Shown piece by piece: positions 34,802 to 63,054 of a DNA stretch of 64,000 nucleotides. A program made the translations under genes and the position numbers. Numbering within the stretch: position 1 is the first letter of the stretch; the number at the start of each line of letters is the position of its first letter. The DNA comes from Minisyncoccota bacterium (GTDB taxonomy: Bacteria; Patescibacteriota; Minisyncoccia; Phycocordibacterales; PALSA-1337). The notes beneath the pieces were generated by a model that worked only from the letters and a program-made list of their open reading frames with translations, was not told the DNA's origin and searched no databases. The stretch is taken from contig DATJGJ010000010.1 in the NCBI GenBank assembly GCA_035495115.1, positions 2,407 through 66,406 of the forward strand. The letters run 5' to 3'.

Positions 34802-35653
34802 ATGAAATCATTCCGCCCAACCTCAAAATCACGTCGTCACATGACTGTTCTCCCATTCAAGGAGTATCTCACAGTCAGCGAGCCATATAAGCCTCTTACC
34901 CACGGTTTCAAGCGTGATGTAGGACGCAATGCGCACGGTCGCATCACTGTTCGTCATCAGGGTGGAGGTCACAAGAAGCTCTATCGCGAGATTGATTTCA
35001 TGTATGACAAAAAGGATGTTATTGCAACGGTGAAGACCATTGAATACGATCCATTCCGTACTGGTTATATCGGTCTTGTTGCATACAAGGATGGTGAGAA
35101 GCGCTACGTTCTCCTCCCAAAGACCATGAAGGTCGGCAACTCATTCATCGTTTCTGAGAATGCGCCTGTTACTACTGGTAACCGTCTTCCACTCAAAAAG
35201 ATTCCTGTCGGCGCTTTCGTTTTTAATATCGAAGTTAAGCCAGGCTCAGGATCAAAGCTTGTTCGCTCAGCTGGTTCATTCGCTCAGGTTATCGCTAATG
35301 ATGCAGGTTATACTCACATCAAGATGCCTTCGACAGAAGTCCGCAAGATTCACGAAGACGCATGGGCATCAATCGGTGCAGTTTCAAACGAAGAAAACCG
35401 CCTCGTTAATGTCGGTAAAGCAGGTCGCTCACGTTGGATGGGTATCCGTCCTACAGTTCGTGGTACTGCTCAGAACCCAGTGGATCACCCATACGGTGGT
35501 GGTGAACAGCGTCAGGGTCGTGGTCTCCGTCGTCTCAAGACACGTTGGGGTAAGCCAGCAGGTAAGGGCCAGAAGACACGCACACCAAAGAAATACTCGA
35601 ACGTCTTTATCGTTTCTCGCCGTCAGGTTGGCAAGAAGAAGACAACTCTCTAA
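34802..35653 (+). CDS. rplB: 50S ribosomal protein L2
   Basis: RNAHGRITVRHQGGGHKK and GTAQNPVDHPYGGGE signatures. Confidence 0.95.
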   Translation: MKSFRPTSKSRRHMTVLPFKEYLTVSEPYKPLTHGFKRDVGRNAHGRITVRHQGGGHKKLYREIDFMYDKKDVIATVKTIEYDPFRTGYIGLVAYKDGEKRYVLLPKTMKVGNSFIVSENAPVTTGNRLPLKKIPVGAFVFNIEVKPGSGSKLVRSAGSFAQVIANDAGYTHIKMPSTEVRKIHEDAWASIGAVSNEENRLVNVGKAGRSRWMGIRPTVRGTAQNPVDHPYGGGEQRQGRGLRRLKTRWGKPAGKGQKTRTPKKYSNVFIVSRRQVGKKKTTL

Positions 35654-35764
35654 TCATGAGAAATGTCGCTCACGGTTTGCACAAGATCTTTGTGAAAGTC
35701 GTAAAAGCGACACTTCACAAGATGGTGATGTTCACTATCACAAAAGAGATTCTCTAAAGAGAAC

Positions 35765-35788
35765 AAAACACCCGAAAGGGTGTTTTTT
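35765..35788 (+). terminator. Rho-independent terminator after rplB
   Basis: aacaccc-gaaa-gggtgtt stem followed by T5. Confidence 0.5.
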
Positions 35789-35904
35789 GTTTCCGCCAAT
35801 AATCATTGACAAATTAGGAATTTCAAGTAGTTTTACAGCAGAACTTGAGGGGTAGCCGCCTCATATTCCAAAACTACAAGGCTACATAAGGAAAGAACAT
35901 TACA

Positions 35905-37122
35905 ATGAGAAAATCATTACTACAACCTGCCGGAGGTAATATCTTCCAGGCAGTCAAAGCTCAACGAGCCGAAGCTGAAAGAGCTGGCATCAAGATCATC
36001 AACCTTACGATTGGACAACCTGCTGGACCTGCCTTTGAAGCAGCCAGAAAGGCGGCTGCTGAGGCGGTCATGTCAGGGGCGGAGAACATGCACGAGTATC
36101 AGGACAACGCTTGTCATCCGTGTCCGGACTTTGCCTCACGTTTTGTCGCGTGCCACGTGTTCCGTGATCTTGAAGGCGCCGCAGTTGAATACTTGCCGAT
36201 CGTTGGCATCAAGCCGACGCTCGATATGGTCATTAAATCTTTGGGCACATGGGATCGTTCGGATGCCAAGCCTGCCCGAGTCTTCACTATGACCAATCCG
36301 GGCTATGGCACCTCCGCCTATGCTTGCAAAGCGATCAAGGGCATCGAGCAGTATCCTTTGCCCATGGATCAGAAGGATTGCTTTCTGTTCGATCCAGAAC
36401 TGATTAGGCTCAAGGAAGGCATCGTTCTTGGGGAAGGCGACATGATTATGTTGAACTTCCCGCACAATCCAACGGGCATCATTGCTCGTGAAGAATGGCT
36501 TCGTTGCTTGTGCGCCTTTTGCGAGTCTCGTGGCATTCGTTTGTTCAACGATGGCGCATATCATATCTTGGCTCACAATGATGATTCAGTGACTCTGGCT
36601 GATGTTGCGATTGATTTTCCCAATCTCAACTGGGCTGAAGCCTTCTCTGCTTCAAAGGCAGGTAACTTCACTGGATGGCGCATCGGTGCGATCGTTGGTT
36701 CGCCGGAGTTCGTGAACGATATCAAACGGATCAAAGGCGAATCTGATAGTGGCTTTGTTGCCTTTGCTGCTGCCGGTGTCTTGGATCAGTTTGAAAAACA
36801 TGGTTCCGACATTGTTCAGCTGCGGGGGCTTTACAAGAAACGTCTCAGGCTCGTAGCGGATACGCTGACTGGGAACGGCATGCGTCTCTCAGTTGAACCG
36901 GAGGCAGGTTTCTTCCTACTCTTCGATAGTCCGTCCTTGGCGTTCGGTCAAGAATGCGCCAATGCTGCTGAATTCAACGCATTGATGATCCAGAAGACAG
37001 GGATCGCCGGTGTCCCATTCGGCAAATGGATTCGTTATGCCATCTGTGCCACTGATGTTGAGGCAGTCATCAACGAAATCGAGGCAGGCTTTATGGTTGC
37101 CGAGGTTGTCTATTATAATTGA
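35905..37122 (+). CDS. PLP-dependent class I/II aminotransferase (DapL or AspC-like)
   Basis: 405 aa with NFPHNPTG, the SASKAGNFTGWRIG PLP-lysine motif, and a higher-GC composition than its neighbours. Confidence 0.7.
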   Translation: MRKSLLQPAGGNIFQAVKAQRAEAERAGIKIINLTIGQPAGPAFEAARKAAAEAVMSGAENMHEYQDNACHPCPDFASRFVACHVFRDLEGAAVEYLPIVGIKPTLDMVIKSLGTWDRSDAKPARVFTMTNPGYGTSAYACKAIKGIEQYPLPMDQKDCFLFDPELIRLKEGIVLGEGDMIMLNFPHNPTGIIAREEWLRCLCAFCESRGIRLFNDGAYHILAHNDDSVTLADVAIDFPNLNWAEAFSASKAGNFTGWRIGAIVGSPEFVNDIKRIKGESDSGFVAFAAAGVLDQFEKHGSDIVQLRGLYKKRLRLVADTLTGNGMRLSVEPEAGFFLLFDSPSLAFGQECANAAEFNALMIQKTGIAGVPFGKWIRYAICATDVEAVINEIEAGFMVAEVVYYN

Positions 37123-37221
37123 TTGTTTCTCCCTCACCTCGCCATCCGGTTTTTACTGGGTGGCGATTTTTAATATAAAAACCGTTCCCAGGGAAGGAAA
37201 CGGTGAGAATGAAGGAAGGCT

Positions 37222-37716
37222 TTAGAAAAAGAGAGGAGGGCTATTTTCCAAGAATGCCTTGAACAGTGCGCCAGCCTTTGCATTGATTTGGATGGCAAAA
37301 GTTTCGGCGGCAATATGGTCATCGTCTCCAGTTTTGAAGCCACTGATTGCAGTAACCAGATTGTTGAAGTAAACGCCGCCAGGAAACCTGAAGTCGCCCT
37401 CACAAATGAGTGCCGGTTTTTTGAACATATCAATGTTCGACATCTTGGTTCGCCAAGCTGCCCGAGCCTTCGCAAATGCGAACTCGCTGTATTTATGTGG
37501 CCATTTTGTTTCTTCCTGCTCACCGAGCGTGCCGCGCCACAATACCTGCGGATCAAGACCACTATCAACTGTTATGACCGGGTCCAATACGATGATGACC
37601 GCCGCGGTCCGACCAGGGACATTGGTGATGTATCTTTTGGTTAAATCAGCGCACTGCTCTTGGAATATTTCCTCAATCATTTCCGCGGTAACGAACTTTG
37701 ATTTTGACATGTTCAA
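37222..37716 (-). CDS. Hypothetical protein (possibly GlcG/DUF336-like)
   Basis: 164-aa ORF inside the higher-GC island. Only a weak resemblance to heme-binding DUF336 proteins. Confidence 0.3.
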   Translation of the reverse strand: MNMSKSKFVTAEMIEEIFQEQCADLTKRYITNVPGRTAAVIIVLDPVITVDSGLDPQVLWRGTLGEQEETKWPHKYSEFAFAKARAAWRTKMSNIDMFKKPALICEGDFRFPGGVYFNNLVTAISGFKTGDDDHIAAETFAIQINAKAGALFKAFLENSPPLFF

Positions 37717-37898
37717 GCCTTTGTTGTTGCCATCGCGTCATGCAATGGATCTGGCGTATTTCTACCTTTTTTGTATCGGTGTGTCAAACACATTTCTTGA
37801 CATTGCCCGAGATAATCAGTAGTCTTGCGACAGACACAGTATCGGCGGTCTGTGTTAAAAACTACCGCTATAACAACGTAATATGGAGAAAATTAGTT

Positions 37899-39206
37899 AT
37901 GCCAATGTCGAAAGACTTCGAAAAACGTTTGTTGGCCATTCTGCCACAAGTCATTGAAAAATTTGGGACACCATTTCACATCTATGATGAGCAGGGGATA
38001 TGCGAAGGCCTTCGTCGCTTGAACGGTGCTTTTGCATCGCACGAGTTGCCGTTCAAAGAATTCTACGCAGTGAAGGCTTTGCCGAAACCTGCCATTATGG
38101 AAATCATCAAGCGGGAAGGTTGCGGTTTCGACTGCAGTTCGATTCCCGAGCTCCGCTTGGCCCGCAACGCCGGCGCACGACCAGGGGACATCATGTTCAC
38201 TTCGAACAACACGTCTTTGAAAGAATTCCGGGAAGCTCTTGATCATGGTGGTTGCATCCTCAATCTCGACGGTATCGAATACATCGAGAAGGTCAAATCG
38301 CTCGGTGCATTTCCGGAGCTTATCTGTTTCCGGCTCAATCCCGGTGACCGTAAGACCGACAATGAAGTAAACTCGATCATTGGGAAGCCGAAGGAATCAA
38401 AGTATGGTGTGCCGATTGAAAATATCGTCACAGCTTACAGGTTGGCAAAGGAGGCCGGCGCAAAATCCTTCGGACTGCACACGATGGTGTGCAGCAATGA
38501 TCGGGACTACAAGCACATGGTTGCCACTTTCAAACTGTTGCTTGAAGTCGCGGAGCAACTTGAGAAAGAGTTGGGTATCGTGCTCGAATTCGTCAATGTC
38601 GGTGGGGGAGTGGGTATTCCATATCGTCCTGACGACACGGAATTCGACATCGAAGCATTCGCCAAGGACTGTTCGGCTCTTGCAGATGAATTCGAGTCGA
38701 AGCACGATTACGTCCCGCGAATCTTTATGGAAAGCGGGCGTTGGGTGACTGGTCAGCATGGCGTTCTGGTTAACCGCGTGATCAATACTTACGACAAATA
38801 CAAGAAGTTCGTGGGTGTTGAAGTGGCGATGCCGGCACTTATGCGACCTGGTATGTATGAAGTGTATCATCATTGCACTCTTCTCAACTCTGACGGGTCG
38901 CCGATCATTGAGGGGAGCCGTCCTCTGGTTCAAGTCACCGTTGCGGGATCAATATGCGAAAATTGTGATGTTCTCGCGCGCGACATTTGGTTGCCGGAAC
39001 CGCACGAAGGCGACCTGATTGTTACGCATACCACCGGGGCACATGGCACGGCGATGTGTTTCAATTATAATGGCAGGACCCGCATCCAAGAGCTGCTCAA
39101 TTACATAATGGGCTACGTTCGTCGCATCTGTCGCGCTGAAACCGATGATGACCTCGAAGTTCGTCATCGCGACCTCGAGGGTGAAGAACACGTTATCAAG
39201 GTTTGA
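37899..39206 (+). CDS. lysA: Orn/DAP/Arg decarboxylase family-2 PLP decarboxylase, most like diaminopimelate decarboxylase LysA
   Basis: FGTPFHIYDE, FYAVKALP (PLP lysine), NVGGGVGIPY, MESGRWV, LMRPGMYEVYHH, VAGSICENCD and THTTGAHG motifs all align to LysA. Start taken at MPMSKDF with a GGAG RBS. Confidence 0.7.
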   Translation: MPMSKDFEKRLLAILPQVIEKFGTPFHIYDEQGICEGLRRLNGAFASHELPFKEFYAVKALPKPAIMEIIKREGCGFDCSSIPELRLARNAGARPGDIMFTSNNTSLKEFREALDHGGCILNLDGIEYIEKVKSLGAFPELICFRLNPGDRKTDNEVNSIIGKPKESKYGVPIENIVTAYRLAKEAGAKSFGLHTMVCSNDRDYKHMVATFKLLLEVAEQLEKELGIVLEFVNVGGGVGIPYRPDDTEFDIEAFAKDCSALADEFESKHDYVPRIFMESGRWVTGQHGVLVNRVINTYDKYKKFVGVEVAMPALMRPGMYEVYHHCTLLNSDGSPIIEGSRPLVQVTVAGSICENCDVLARDIWLPEPHEGDLIVTHTTGAHGTAMCFNYNGRTRIQELLNYIMGYVRRICRAETDDDLEVRHRDLEGEEHVIKV

Positions 39207-39227
39207 CCAATTAACTCTAACTTCACA

Positions 39228-39259
39228 CCGGATCTCCCCACAGGGAAGTCCGGTTTTTT
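39228..39259 (+). terminator. Rho-independent terminator after the island
   Basis: ccgga...tccgg stem followed by T6. Confidence 0.45.
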
Positions 39260-39323
39260 ATTATTCGGTTTCTACGAAAGTTCACCATTCTTTTCAATAT
39301 CCATGAAAATAAGCCTTAAATGC

Positions 39324-39352
39324 TTGACTTCGAAATCTGGCTCTGCTACTAT
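39324..39352 (+). promoter_or_regulatory. Sigma70-like promoter for rpsS (TTGACT-17-TACTAT)
   Basis: TTGACT at 39324-39329, a 17-nt spacer, then TACTAT at 39347-39352. Confidence 0.4.
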
Positions 39353-39400
39353 ACCTCTCACGCTCATTTGAGCTTTTTTAATTCTACATTCACTCATTCC

Positions 39401-39748
39401 ATGGCACGATCACTTAAGAAAGGTCCATATGTCGAGGAAAGACTCCTCAAGAAAATAGCTGGCAAAAAGCCTGCTACTTCTGGCGTCATCAAGACATGGT
39501 CACGTCGCAGTCAGATCTCTCCTGAGATGCTCGGCTTTACTTTTGGCGTACACAACGGTCGTGCTCATATAGAAGTTCTAGTCACCGAGGACATGGTTGG
39601 ACACCGCCTCGGTGAATTCTCGCCTACACGTAAGTTCGTACGTCACGGTGGTAAGATGCAAAAGGAAATCGAGCTCAAGGCAAAGGAGGCTGAGGTCGCA
39701 GCTGCAAAGTCAGCAAAGGAAGCAGCTACTACCGCTACAAAGAAATAA
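39401..39748 (+). CDS. rpsS: 30S ribosomal protein S19 (Lys/Ala-rich C-terminal extension)
   Basis: [19 protein letters not shown]...[13 protein letters not shown], a canonical S19. The upstream in-frame ORF extension covers the promoter and is not coding. Confidence 0.9.
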
Positions 39749-44905: not shown

Positions 44906-44960
44906 TTAACAGGTCATTGCTGTTATTCTGACTGAGCTAGGTTATACTTTGTGTATACTT

Positions 44961-46103
44961 ATGATCAATAAACAACTGCTTGATTACATCTCATACAAAC
45001 TTGCTCATGGCTCAAGCGATGAGGCTATAGTTCAAAAAATCTTAGCAGAAGGTAGTTGGACAACTGCGGATATCAACGAGGCGTTCGCTGCGCTCGGCCG
45101 AAGTGTTCCAGAAAACAAAAAGCCCCAATTTATTGTACCTCCAATTGTACCTCCAATTTCAGCAACAATTGCACCAAAACCACCAGCCACACTTTCTGTG
45201 CCAGTTCGAGAACCTCTGACTCCTCCACCAGCGCCAATGCCGATCGTACCAAAACCGGAGGTTCAGCCAATACCAAAACCTACACCTCTTCCGGAAACCG
45301 CTCCGGTATCTCAAGCATGGGAAATGCCGCCTCGTGAAAAATCTCCCGCATCATCATTTCCACGTCCATCAGTTCCAACGCCACCGCTCCCGCAAACATC
45401 TGCATCGCATGTATTTGTAGCTCCAGTAAATCAGCGCCAGACTTCCACACATTCCGGGGCGCGTATTATCATTATCCTTCTCATTGTCGCCATTCTTGGA
45501 GGTGCGGGCGCATATATGTATTTGTATCGATTCGATACTGTACAATCGCTCATAAAGAGTATTGCTGGAAAGAGTGAGTCTACCACAGCCCCAAGTCCTT
45601 CAGTCCAAAAGCCGATAAAGAGAACTCCTGCTATGGTTAATAATGCATCATACAGTTTCGTATTACCTGATGGTTGGCAGGCATCAGCCTCATCAAATGA
45701 TGGTCAAGGCGTCCAAGCTTCAAATCCAACAACGGGATTTGTAGTATCGACAGCTATCACTCAAATCCCTAAAAGCGCAGGCGCTATCAGTTCGATTGAT
45801 CAGATAATGACGTCTGATACAACAAAGGCAATCATCAAATCAGAGTTCCCTGGCATGACTGTTGCTTTCGGCAAGGTAAGTGCCGGTATGCTCGGGGGAG
45901 AGAAGGCGGTTATTGTGGCTTTTACTTTGACAGCAACAAGCACAACTGATGGAGTCGAACAATTAAAGACCAAAGCGATGTTACAGTATAGTGCGGTGCA
46001 TGAGGGTATTTTATATAGTGTTGTTTTCAAATCAGATTTGGATAAAGGGTTGGATTTACTAAAAGATGCTGAGACTATAGCGGGAAGCTTTACGTTTATG
46101 TAG
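44961..46103 (+). CDS. Pro-rich membrane protein (cytoplasmic N-terminal helical domain, Pro-rich linker, one TM, extracytoplasmic domain)
   Basis: MINKQLLDYISYKLAHGSSDEAIVQKIL..., then a PxxP-rich segment (IVPPIVPPISA...PPPAPMPIVPKPEVQPIPKPTPLPE), a TM (IIIILLIVAILGGAGAYMYLY), and a roughly 190-aa C-terminal domain. Confidence 0.45.
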   Translation: MINKQLLDYISYKLAHGSSDEAIVQKILAEGSWTTADINEAFAALGRSVPENKKPQFIVPPIVPPISATIAPKPPATLSVPVREPLTPPPAPMPIVPKPEVQPIPKPTPLPETAPVSQAWEMPPREKSPASSFPRPSVPTPPLPQTSASHVFVAPVNQRQTSTHSGARIIIILLIVAILGGAGAYMYLYRFDTVQSLIKSIAGKSESTTAPSPSVQKPIKRTPAMVNNASYSFVLPDGWQASASSNDGQGVQASNPTTGFVVSTAITQIPKSAGAISSIDQIMTSDTTKAIIKSEFPGMTVAFGKVSAGMLGGEKAVIVAFTLTATSTTDGVEQLKTKAMLQYSAVHEGILYSVVFKSDLDKGLDLLKDAETIAGSFTFM

Positions 46104-46120: not shown

Positions 46121-46149
46121 TTGACCCTTTATGCATCATCTGCTAGTAT
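46121..46149 (+). promoter_or_regulatory. Sigma70-like promoter (TTGACC-17-TAGTAT) driving rpsZ and the distal spc genes, with a roughly 100-nt leader
   Basis: TTGACC at 46121-46126 and TAGTAT at 46144-46149. Confidence 0.35.
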
Positions 46150-46254: not shown

Positions 46255-46440
46255 ATGGCAACTAAAGCAGTCATTGCACGCTCAAAGAGAACACCGAAGT
46301 TTGCTTCGCGTGTTGTTCGTCGTTGTTTCCGTTGTGGTCGTAAGCACGGTTATATGCGTGATTTTGACCTCTGCCGTATTTGTTTCCGTGAATTCGCCAA
46401 TGAAGGCATTATCCCAGGCATAAAGAAATCATCATGGTAA
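46255..46440 (+). CDS. rpsZ: 30S ribosomal protein S14, Zn-ribbon (Z) type
   Basis: 61 aa with [23 protein letters not shown] (C4 zinc ribbon). Confidence 0.85.
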
Positions 46441-58049: not shown

Positions 58050-58417
58050 TCGGGGATGAATTTGGCATCGACAATCGACAGTTTTCGTTCGTGCGGTGCG
58101 AGCACCAGTAACTCGTAAATCTGCTGGAAATCCAATTGCAAAATCTTCTGTCTCTCCATATTTTGGAGCAAAGGACTTTCAATTCGCTCTCGTTTAACGA
58201 GGCCGTCTACCTACTGGGATCCTGACGGTAGGCTGGGCGTAATAACCTGGATGTAGGGCAGGTAGAGCTTCTCACTCTATCTCCTGAAACAATGAGATCG
58301 TGATCATGTGTTTTGTTTTCTTTCAAGCATGATCATTAAACTTTAAAGGATTCTACCACCGTAGAGTCGCTCGATGAACTTCGATTGCACGGCGGTTCGA
58401 TTCCGCCCATCTCCACC
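58050..58417 (+). ncRNA. ssrA: tmRNA (ssrA), one-piece, immediately downstream of smpB
   Basis: 5' GGGGATGAATTTGGCATCGAC (acceptor plus D-analog). 3' GGCGGTTCGATTCCGCCCATCTCCACC (T-arm plus acceptor, complementary to the 5' GGGGATG). An internal in-frame tag ORF ends in FALV-TAA. Confidence 0.75.
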
Positions 58418-62970: not shown

Positions 62971-63044
62971 CCGCCCTTAGCTCAGTTGGTTAGAGCACAG
63001 AGCTTATACCTCTGGGGTCCTTGGTTCGAATCCAAGAGGGCGGA
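62971..63044 (+). tRNA. tRNA-Ile with anticodon UAU (decodes AUA). CCA is not encoded.
   Basis: Manual cloverleaf: acceptor CCGCCCT/AGGGCGG, D-arm GCTC-AGTTGGTTA-GAGC, anticodon stem CAGAG/CTCTG with loop CT-TAT-AC, T-arm CTTGG-TTCGAAT-CCAAG, and discriminator A. Confidence 0.75.
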
Positions 63045-63054
63045 CAAGAAATAG

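Follow-up and report, generated by a model that had tools for sequence, protein, structure and literature searches.

The S10 operon of bacteria has a canonical order, rpsJ-rplC-rplD-rplW-rplB-rpsS-rplV-rpsC-rplP-rpmC-rpsQ, and in Escherichia coli it is read from one promoter and subject to L4-mediated attenuation in its leader. The S10/spc cluster is the textbook case of conserved gene order, and a block of "16 syntenic ribosomal proteins" is used for placing genomes of the candidate phyla radiation (CPR). Variable islands between conserved core genes are known as well, one example being the capsule locus of pneumococci, bounded by dexB and aliA and exchanged by homologous recombination in its flanks. 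A further described system is the DapL variant of the diaminopimelate (DAP)/lysine pathway, which comprises DapB, DapL, DapF and LysA and occurs in plants, Chlamydia, cyanobacteria, Desulfobacterota and methanogens. The present work concerns the stretch between rplB and rpsS in a 64,000-nucleotide segment (the window, along which positions are counted here) of the genome of a Minisyncoccota bacterium (assembly GCA_035495115.1, contig DATJGJ010000010.1, positions 2,407 to 66,406). There, 3,747 bp with three non-ribosomal genes, among them an aminotransferase (AT) and a LysA-type decarboxylase (DC), lie between the end of rplB (35653) and the start of rpsS (39401). The reading that we consider probable is that the S10 operon was ancestrally split at the rplB|rpsS junction, and that this junction is a permissive spacer holding lineage-specific cassettes, here one of DAP/lysine type.

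The first body of evidence came from a survey of 80 species-representative genomes, fetched by means of RplB (62-93% identity) and labelled Taylorbacteria, Kaiserbacteria, Nomurabacteria, Zambryskibacteria or Paceibacterota. The interval between rplB and rpsS ranged from 45 bp to 7.3 kb, with a median of 952 bp; it measured at most 250 bp in 16 of 60 genomes and exceeded 1 kb in 27 of them. In 10 further genomes rpsS was not found within at least 3 kb of rplB, the full 10 kb of sequence being available in eight of these. The premise of the initial annotation, that rplB and rpsS follow each other without interruption, is thus false for this class. As in the canonical operon, the order and orientation of the eleven ribosomal genes are kept and nearly every other junction is tight: rplD-rplW, rplW-rplB, rpsS-rplV, rplV-rpsC and rpsC-rplP measured at most 250 bp in all of the 41-78 loci measured per junction, rplC-rplD in 71 of 72, and rpmC-rpsQ, rpsQ-rplN, rplN-rplX, rplX-rplE, rpsH-rplF and rplF-rplR in essentially all. 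Two other junctions were loose, rpsJ-rplC (over 1 kb in 8 of 57) and rplE-rpsH (over 1 kb in 15 of 44). Unlike the canonical operon, the one described here has a predicted terminator after rplB and an internal promoter-like site before rpsS, with a spacer of 45 bp to more than 7 kb that holds unrelated genes.

The second body of evidence is the conservation of those two elements. The motif TTGACn-N16-18-TAnnnT, usually with a TG-extended -10 box, occurs in the 150 nt ahead of rpsS in 51 of the 64 related loci (shuffled sequences: mean 0.69, maximum 3), and in an alignment of seven close relatives TTGACT and TG-TA--AT are invariant. The motif is also present in 12 of the 15 loci with a gap of at most 170 bp, in which the whole gap spans 45-162 bp. 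A hairpin followed by a T-run lies at most 150 nt after rplB in 41 of the 64 loci (shuffles: mean 3.0, maximum 6), including 11 of the 15 with a short gap. Since the promoter motif is found throughout the class, short gaps included, it is ancestral, and the notion that the rpsS promoter was new had to be abandoned; so the insertion would seem not to have split the operon, the cassette apparently sitting where the operon was already split. The picture that these data suggest is that in Paceibacteria (Taylorbacteria, Kaiserbacteria, Nomurabacteria and their relatives) the S10 operon would have been cut ancestrally into two transcription units at rplB|rpsS, with a putative intrinsic terminator after rplB and a conserved, presumably sigma-70-type promoter and a short hairpin-plus-U leader before rpsS. 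Because the two halves would no longer depend on read-through, the spacer would tolerate insertions, and lineage-specific genes would build up there and be replaced over time. Full-text searches of the CPR/Parcubacteria literature turned up no account of the split or the cassette, which is no proof of their being unpublished, and nothing relevant to either is contained in PMC13198582, PMC5220378 or PMC4508563 (Nelson & Stegen 2015).

In the window, the ribosomal genes run tuf-rpsJ-rplC-rplD-rplW-rplB upstream of the stretch and rpsS-rplV-rpsC-rplP from 39401 onwards. The RplB protein is 95% identical to that of the related locus L001, Pfam Ribosomal_L2 being recorded in the homologous loci, and rpsS shows 64-94% identity to its counterparts in related loci; its start is at 39401 and not at 39320, the start given in the list of open reading frames (ORFs), which is an in-frame ATG further upstream. 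Terminators were sought by a scan for hairpins followed by a T-run, and the fold energy of the RNA and its z-score were then calculated; the promoter pattern TTGACN-N16-18-TANNNT matched 17 times in the window, 6.8 matches being expected. The features of the stretch, in order, are as follows (PLP, pyridoxal phosphate).

34802-35653, plus strand: rplB (L2), from its ORF and translation; last gene of the predicted upstream ribosomal transcription unit
35761-35792, plus strand: terminator-like hairpin and T-run, 108 nt past the rplB stop; -14.5 kcal/mol, z = -3.65
35806-35833, plus strand: promoter-like TTGACA-16-TAGTTT, 72 nt upstream of AT, from the pattern search
35905-37122, plus strand: AT, class I/II PLP aminotransferase of 405 residues, Pfam Aminotran_1_2
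37139-37166, plus strand: terminator-like hairpin and T-run after AT; -21.1 kcal/mol, z = -5.27
37181-37204, minus strand: terminator-like hairpin and T-run after orf164; -13.9 kcal/mol, z = -4.27
37222-37710/37716, minus strand: orf164, an ORF of 162 (ATG at 37710) or 164 residues
37797-37825, plus strand: promoter-like TTGACA-17-TAGTCT, 74 nt upstream of DC, from the pattern search
37899-39206, plus strand: DC, LysA-type (fold-type III PLP) decarboxylase of 433-435 residues, Pfam Orn_Arg_deC_N and Orn_DAP_Arg_deC
39227-39254, to 39260 with its U6, plus strand: terminator-like hairpin and U6 after DC; -17.6 kcal/mol, z = -2.79
39324-39352, plus strand: promoter-like TTGACT-17-TACTAT with a TG-extended -10 box, 49 nt upstream of rpsS
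39362-39379, plus strand: leader hairpin GCUC-AUUU-GAGC and U6, starting 10 nt past the -10 box
39401-39748, plus strand: rpsS (S19), from its translation; first gene of the predicted downstream ribosomal transcription unit

Much of the initial annotation thus stood: the S10 operon is interrupted between rplB and rpsS, the ORFs and Pfam matches confirm an aminotransferase, a small divergent ORF and a LysA-type decarboxylase in the interruption, and the bracketing elements (a hairpin with a T-run after rplB and after DC, and TTGACT-17-TACTAT before rpsS) were recovered as predictions. Its proposal of a CPR host agrees with a window that has type IV pilus genes, a few glycolytic genes and no dap genes, and with identical proteins labelled Candidatus Paceibacterota. 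The three transcription units that it envisaged give way to about five predicted ones, because a promoter-like site and a terminator-like hairpin accompany every one of the inserted genes, and the cargo would accordingly consist of three self-contained monocistronic units, AT, orf164 and DC. Inspection showed an inverted repeat TGTCAA-N9-TTGACA at 37780-37802, in the interval separating the oppositely oriented orf164 and DC genes; this may represent a back-to-back pair of -35 boxes or a site for a regulator.

The leader of rpsS is itself a recurrent element. A hairpin and T-run stand at its 5' end in 45 of 49 related loci (shuffles: mean 1.1, maximum 5); the hairpins are GC-rich, have stems of 4-7 bp and start 4-9 nt after the -10 box. 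They comprise at least 13 different stem sequences, and therefore the pairing has been kept through sequence change. A leader with a hairpin and then a U-run is formally attenuator-like, a likeness to the canonical S10 operon, and the element may be a 5' stabiliser or an attenuator of operons of the translation apparatus. In the window, the leader of tuf (from 31223) is likewise built of a hairpin and a U-run.

The content of the spacer is hypervariable. In 41 loci, 103 ORFs in the gap fell into 86 clusters, 80 of them singletons, and two thirds were co-oriented with the ribosomal genes. Judged by Pfam, the cargo includes proC-proB-proA in L052 (11658-14771), pyrF, a phosphoribosyltransferase and pyrD in L077 (10567-13308), purC in L040 (3176-4129), a diacylglycerol kinase in five loci, the HlyD-type membrane-fusion protein of an apparent ATP-binding cassette (ABC) exporter in L068, and elsewhere a DUF805-like membrane protein, a Mur-ligase-like protein and a pseudopilin. 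A minus-strand histidine kinase (HisKA) occupies the spacer of L010, and its blastp cluster also takes in L011, L013 and L014. The AT/DC cassette recurs at the same site in L001/L002 (DC 86% and RplB 95% identical to those of the window), in L004/L005 of Candidatus Taylorbacteria GCA_001821115.1 (DC 57%), in L089 and L169 (DC 66% in each) and in the P0126 locus, whose AT is on record on 28 contigs. The pair is also found away from the ribosomal cluster, in the order AT-orf-DC in L003 and DC-AT in L008, L096, L101 and L112/113. The cassette is a mosaic: a DapB-like gene is present in L001, where orf164 is lacking, and the window has orf164 but no DapB-like gene. In L004, a histidine kinase and a major facilitator superfamily (MFS) transporter were noted after the DapB-like gene, ahead of rpsS. 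The locus shares with the pneumococcal capsule locus a fixed site, conserved flanks, cargo that varies among close relatives and, in this instance, a mosaic cassette; it differs in being flanked by ribosomal-protein genes of an operon and in having cargo that is functionally unrelated between lineages.

The more securely assigned of the two enzymes is DC. Its matches to PF02784 (E = 1.3e-36) and PF00278 (E = 1e-15) define a fold-type III architecture, with a PLP barrel and a C-terminal sheet domain; its best NCBIfam model is TIGR01048, lysA, with 270.5 bits, and a sequence search of solved structures returned only DAP decarboxylases down to E = 3e-28. Aligned with 4xg1, DC has YAVKAL, ESGR, LMRPGMY and ICENCD opposite YAVKAN, EPGR, LIRPALY and ICETGD, and 120 members of its subfamily retain the motifs of the PLP-lysine, E-S-G-R, R-P-x-x-Y and C-E. 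From the LysA structures of Mycobacterium tuberculosis and Methanocaldococcus jannaschii, we take ESGR, RPxxY and CE, the last contributed by the partner subunit, to hold the distal carboxylate of DAP. The subfamily includes proteins named "LysA" from Geothermobacter, Desulforegula, Anaerolineae and Dehalococcoidia (53-56% identity), and in nine metagenomic loci a canonical DapL (TIGR03542, 583 bits vs a cut-off of 365) is encoded directly upstream of non-CPR members that are 50-54% identical to DC. From these motifs and contexts, DC is very probably a diaminopimelate decarboxylase that would convert meso-DAP to L-lysine, belonging to a LysA subfamily that adjoins canonical dapL in non-CPR bacteria. 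The polyamine-type decarboxylases NspC, SpeA and DokD were rejected as candidates, scoring 24-83 bits against 270 for LysA. Of the functions proposed initially for the enzyme pair, the DAP/lysine type is supported, through the LysA motifs and the dapL and DapB-like context, and the polyamine-type chemistry falls; the suggested comparison by hidden Markov models likewise left LysA as the best fit and NspC far behind. Other neighbours of the non-CPR members are an Lrp/AsnC-type regulator, directly upstream in L006 (5428-7260) and in 18 metagenome loci, and, often, an MFS transporter.

The case for AT depends more on its surroundings. It matches PF00155 (E = 1.7e-24, residues 30-384), and by inspection its PLP site looks complete, with NPTG, D-x-x-Y, S-x-S-K and two arginine motifs. 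The three best of 60 NCBIfam families are all LL-DAP aminotransferases, NF004937 (124.7 bits), NF006756 (117.6) and TIGR03540 (110.3), followed by GntC with 88.5 bits; the 25 best that were listed do not include TIGR03542. A search of solved structures placed aspartate aminotransferases first (1o4s, 79 bits) and gave no DapL structure at E <= 1e-8. The 120 relatives of AT listed share at least 47% identity with it, and wherever their source is named it is Patescibacteria or Paceibacterota. In several CPR lineages AT adjoins a LysA-type gene, in both gene orders, and in L001, L004 and L089 the pair is followed by a very divergent DapB-like gene. The best models of the encoded protein are plant-type, with TIGR02130 at E = 3e-6 for L001 and 2e-11 for the homologue in L003, below the curated cut-off; its best PDB match is 7t34 (E = 1e-4), where EGHQASK aligns to ESHQASK (motif E-G/S-H-Q-x-S-K). 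A search with tblastn found no DapB-like gene elsewhere in the window. In this context AT would supply the step before DC, from tetrahydrodipicolinate to LL-DAP, most likely as a CPR-specific DapL analogue, and the DapB-like gene would complete the cassette in relatives; for AT as a functional analogue of the LL-DAP aminotransferase the balance tips modestly in favour. Flux through the pair might run towards biosynthesis or towards salvage of wall-derived DAP. The likeness to the DapL pathway lies in the LysA-type enzyme with DAP-binding motifs, the aminotransferase with LL-DAP best models, the plant-type DapB-like gene of relatives and the TIGR03542 DapL adjoining non-CPR members of the LysA subfamily. 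The differences are that AT, the DapB-like protein and DC all score below curated cut-offs, and that the locus has an extra gene of GlcG/HbpS fold, genes predicted to be monocistronic and no lysine riboswitch.

That extra gene, orf164, has no Pfam, NCBIfam or PDB sequence match, and at E <= 0.01 Pfam gave nothing for it or for 10 of its relatives, DUF336 (PF03928) included. An AlphaFold2 model with a mean predicted local distance difference test score (pLDDT) of 89.4 was compared with the PDB by Foldseek, which returned Ybr137w, HbpS and DESPIG_02683 with a probability of 1.00, E values of 3e-4 to 1e-3 and template modelling (TM) scores of 0.50-0.61. A profile search among 1.84 billion representatives found 195 relatives, which lie divergently between the AT slot and DC in L003, L169 and the P0126 locus, whereas L170 (2306-3393) reads DC, divergent GlcG-like ORF, rpsS; the association of orf164 with DC is real. 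The protein is a conserved small protein with a predicted GlcG/HbpS-like (DUF336-type) fold and might act as an accessory protein. It shares with the GlcG/HbpS/Ybr137w ("haem-degrading") proteins the fold of the model (TM 0.50-0.61) and differs from them in having no sequence-level match, the likeness being one of predicted fold alone.

Several observations weigh against the reading proposed above, and they concern both the enzymes and the site. The scores of AT lie far under the cut-offs of 585, 507 and 593 for NF004937, NF006756 and TIGR03540, and AT is for that reason not a recognised DapL; its homologue in L007 stands alone, with no DC nearby. DC, at 270.5 bits, falls below the TIGR01048 cut-off of 297.9, its CPR relatives scoring 226-276 bits and the non-CPR relatives at 53-56% identity 294-313, and its subfamily has GAH throughout where solved LysA enzymes have GAY. 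Inspection of the 64-kb window revealed none of dapA, dapF, asd and lysC, so that a complete lysine/DAP pathway is hypothetical. All of this can be accommodated by supposing that AT and DC are native genes that do not make lysine: they would act on another substrate carrying an amino-acid group at each end, or in a different amine-forming or peptidoglycan-related route, or serve only to salvage host-derived DAP, AT being a general aminotransferase that merely lies beside DC. The CENCD variant of DC, the missing lysine riboswitch and a GlcG/HbpS-fold partner with no role in the classical pathway would fit such a supposition too. However, the residues that contact the distal carboxylate in solved LysA enzymes align and are kept in DC, canonical dapL adjoins members of the subfamily in the nine non-CPR loci, and a DapB-like gene lies within the cassette in three lineages. 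Moreover, the aminotransferase slot of L169 (5622-6962, minus strand) holds a 446-residue protein only 26% identical to the AT of the window, and its best model is again NF004937 (189 bits over positions 2-410 of 410), so that two unrelated aminotransferases in the same slot match the same LL-DAP aminotransferase model. We consider a function outside lysine formation rather unlikely on these grounds.

As to the site, the promoters and terminators are pattern matches only, and none of the 80 survey genomes carries AT/DC downstream of rplB. In a tree of ribosomal proteins the genomes with the cassette are not monophyletic: they form two sub-clades, one of the window and L001 and the other of L004 and L089, and genomes whose spacer has different cargo, or hardly any, are interleaved with them. 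Identities between the window and L001 (6687-9368) are discordant, with 61% for AT, 86% for DC and 90% for the ribosomal proteins. The interleaving, this discordance and the swapped aminotransferase of L169 indicate that cargo at the site turns over, and the patchy presence of the cassette could have arisen through repeated loss or through exchange between related genomes. A bolder form of the idea would make the rplB|rpsS spacer a dedicated exchange site for accessory metabolism, at which small, self-contained biosynthetic cassettes for lysine/DAP, proline, pyrimidines or purines are swapped among related episymbionts by homologous recombination with the near-invariant ribosomal genes as homology arms, and would make the rpsS leader a new autoregulatory attenuator of the downstream half. 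We regard this version as unlikely. The ancestral split with a permissive spacer would account for the variable cargo by turnover, through loss or exchange.

The initial annotation saw the stretch as a foreign island, that is, a recently acquired DapL/LysA pair inserted into an intact S10 operon and bringing a new promoter with it, and it gave the GC content as 55% in the island and 40% in the flanks. Computed formally, a step that it had named beforehand as refuting if the contrast vanished, the values are 48.4% for the whole stretch between rplB and rpsS and 46-47% for the flanks, and the contrast did vanish. AT has 51.0% GC, DC 50.7%, orf164 47.5% and the four spacers 38.5-46.5%; the upstream ribosomal block has 46.9%, the downstream block 46.3%, rplB 48.6%, rplC 49.5% and the whole window 45.5%. 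AT and DC are indeed about 1.5 standard deviations richer in GC than the mean of the 55 genes of at least 150 residues (46.1 +/- 3.2%), and their tetranucleotide distances stand at the 99th and 95th percentile. In addition, L009-L014 and L021, the species representatives nearest to the window, lack the cassette at this position, and the nearest named non-CPR relatives of DC are the LysA proteins of Desulfuromonadales, Anaerolineae and Dehalococcoidia, at 53-56% identity. Yet the stretch deviates by only 2 points, the native genes map (52.7%) and nusA (51.3%) exceed both AT and DC in GC, and tuf reaches the 93rd percentile of tetranucleotide distance. At least five further assemblies, with ribosomal proteins only about 80-90% identical, have this cassette in the identical position, and its GC varies with that of the host genome (gap/flanks 48.4/46.3, 49.0/52.1, 45.9/45.6 and 41.5/42.6 in four genomes); native composition of the genes at a shared position was the other outcome that the initial annotation had named as refuting. 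The relatives of AT listed bear CPR names only, and the promoter and terminator elements are kept in relatives with other cargo or none. There is no integrase or transposase among the three ORFs, no tRNA within the stretch, and the repeats flanking it are short and at chance level, none of them att-like. Recent horizontal transfer, as judged by composition, was rejected on the calculations of GC, GC at third codon positions (GC3) and tetranucleotides together with the host-tracking GC of the cassette; insertion of a recent foreign island into an intact operon is very improbable and largely refuted, and the term acquired island, as usually understood, does not fit the cassette. An Rfam scan returned no family, hence no lysine riboswitch or ribosomal leader, its sole match being a chance small RNA (E = 0.066). 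Finally, a chimeric contig joining two halves of a ribosomal cluster through unrelated DNA is scarcely credible, even for a metagenome-assembled genome, given identical proteins on two independent records (NCBI and JGI), the same architecture in independent assemblies from JGI, NCBI, ENA and Logan, and the AT of the P0126 locus, which, besides its 28 contigs, an index places in 39 collection blocks.

Some further observations were made along the ribosomal cluster and the window. The cluster is interrupted a second time, between rplE and a Zn-type rpsN (46255-46440), by genes for a PIF1-like helicase (PF05970, 43037-44905) and for a membrane protein rich in proline (44949-46103); a promoter-like TTGACC-N17-TAGTAT lies at 46121-46149, ahead of rpsN. 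In L004 (2945-4174) an NlpC/P60 gene and an ORF of 135 residues stand between rplC and rplD. The window also carries a transfer-messenger RNA gene (tag AKSSVSPYFGAKDFQFALV) at 58052-58417 and a tRNA-Ile with anticodon TAT at 62971-63045.

If the S10 operon was split ancestrally as proposed, the consequences concern both the use of ribosomal genes as markers and the metabolism of these organisms. The ribosomal marker block is routinely broken at rplB|rpsS in this class, and less often at rpsJ|rplC and rplE|rpsN, which affects strategies based on marker contigs and checks for misassembly. Some of the biosynthetic capacity that is patchily distributed among these reduced genomes is located here, with genes of lysine/DAP, proline, pyrimidine and purine metabolism, and, the site being fixed and easily found, metabolic gain and loss could be tracked across hundreds of genomes. 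The divergent aminotransferase family and the LysA subfamily without a solved structure are candidates for biochemistry, and the cassette of AT and DC, in some cases with the DapB-like gene, would bear on the supply of lysine and of DAP as a wall component in some CPR bacteria.

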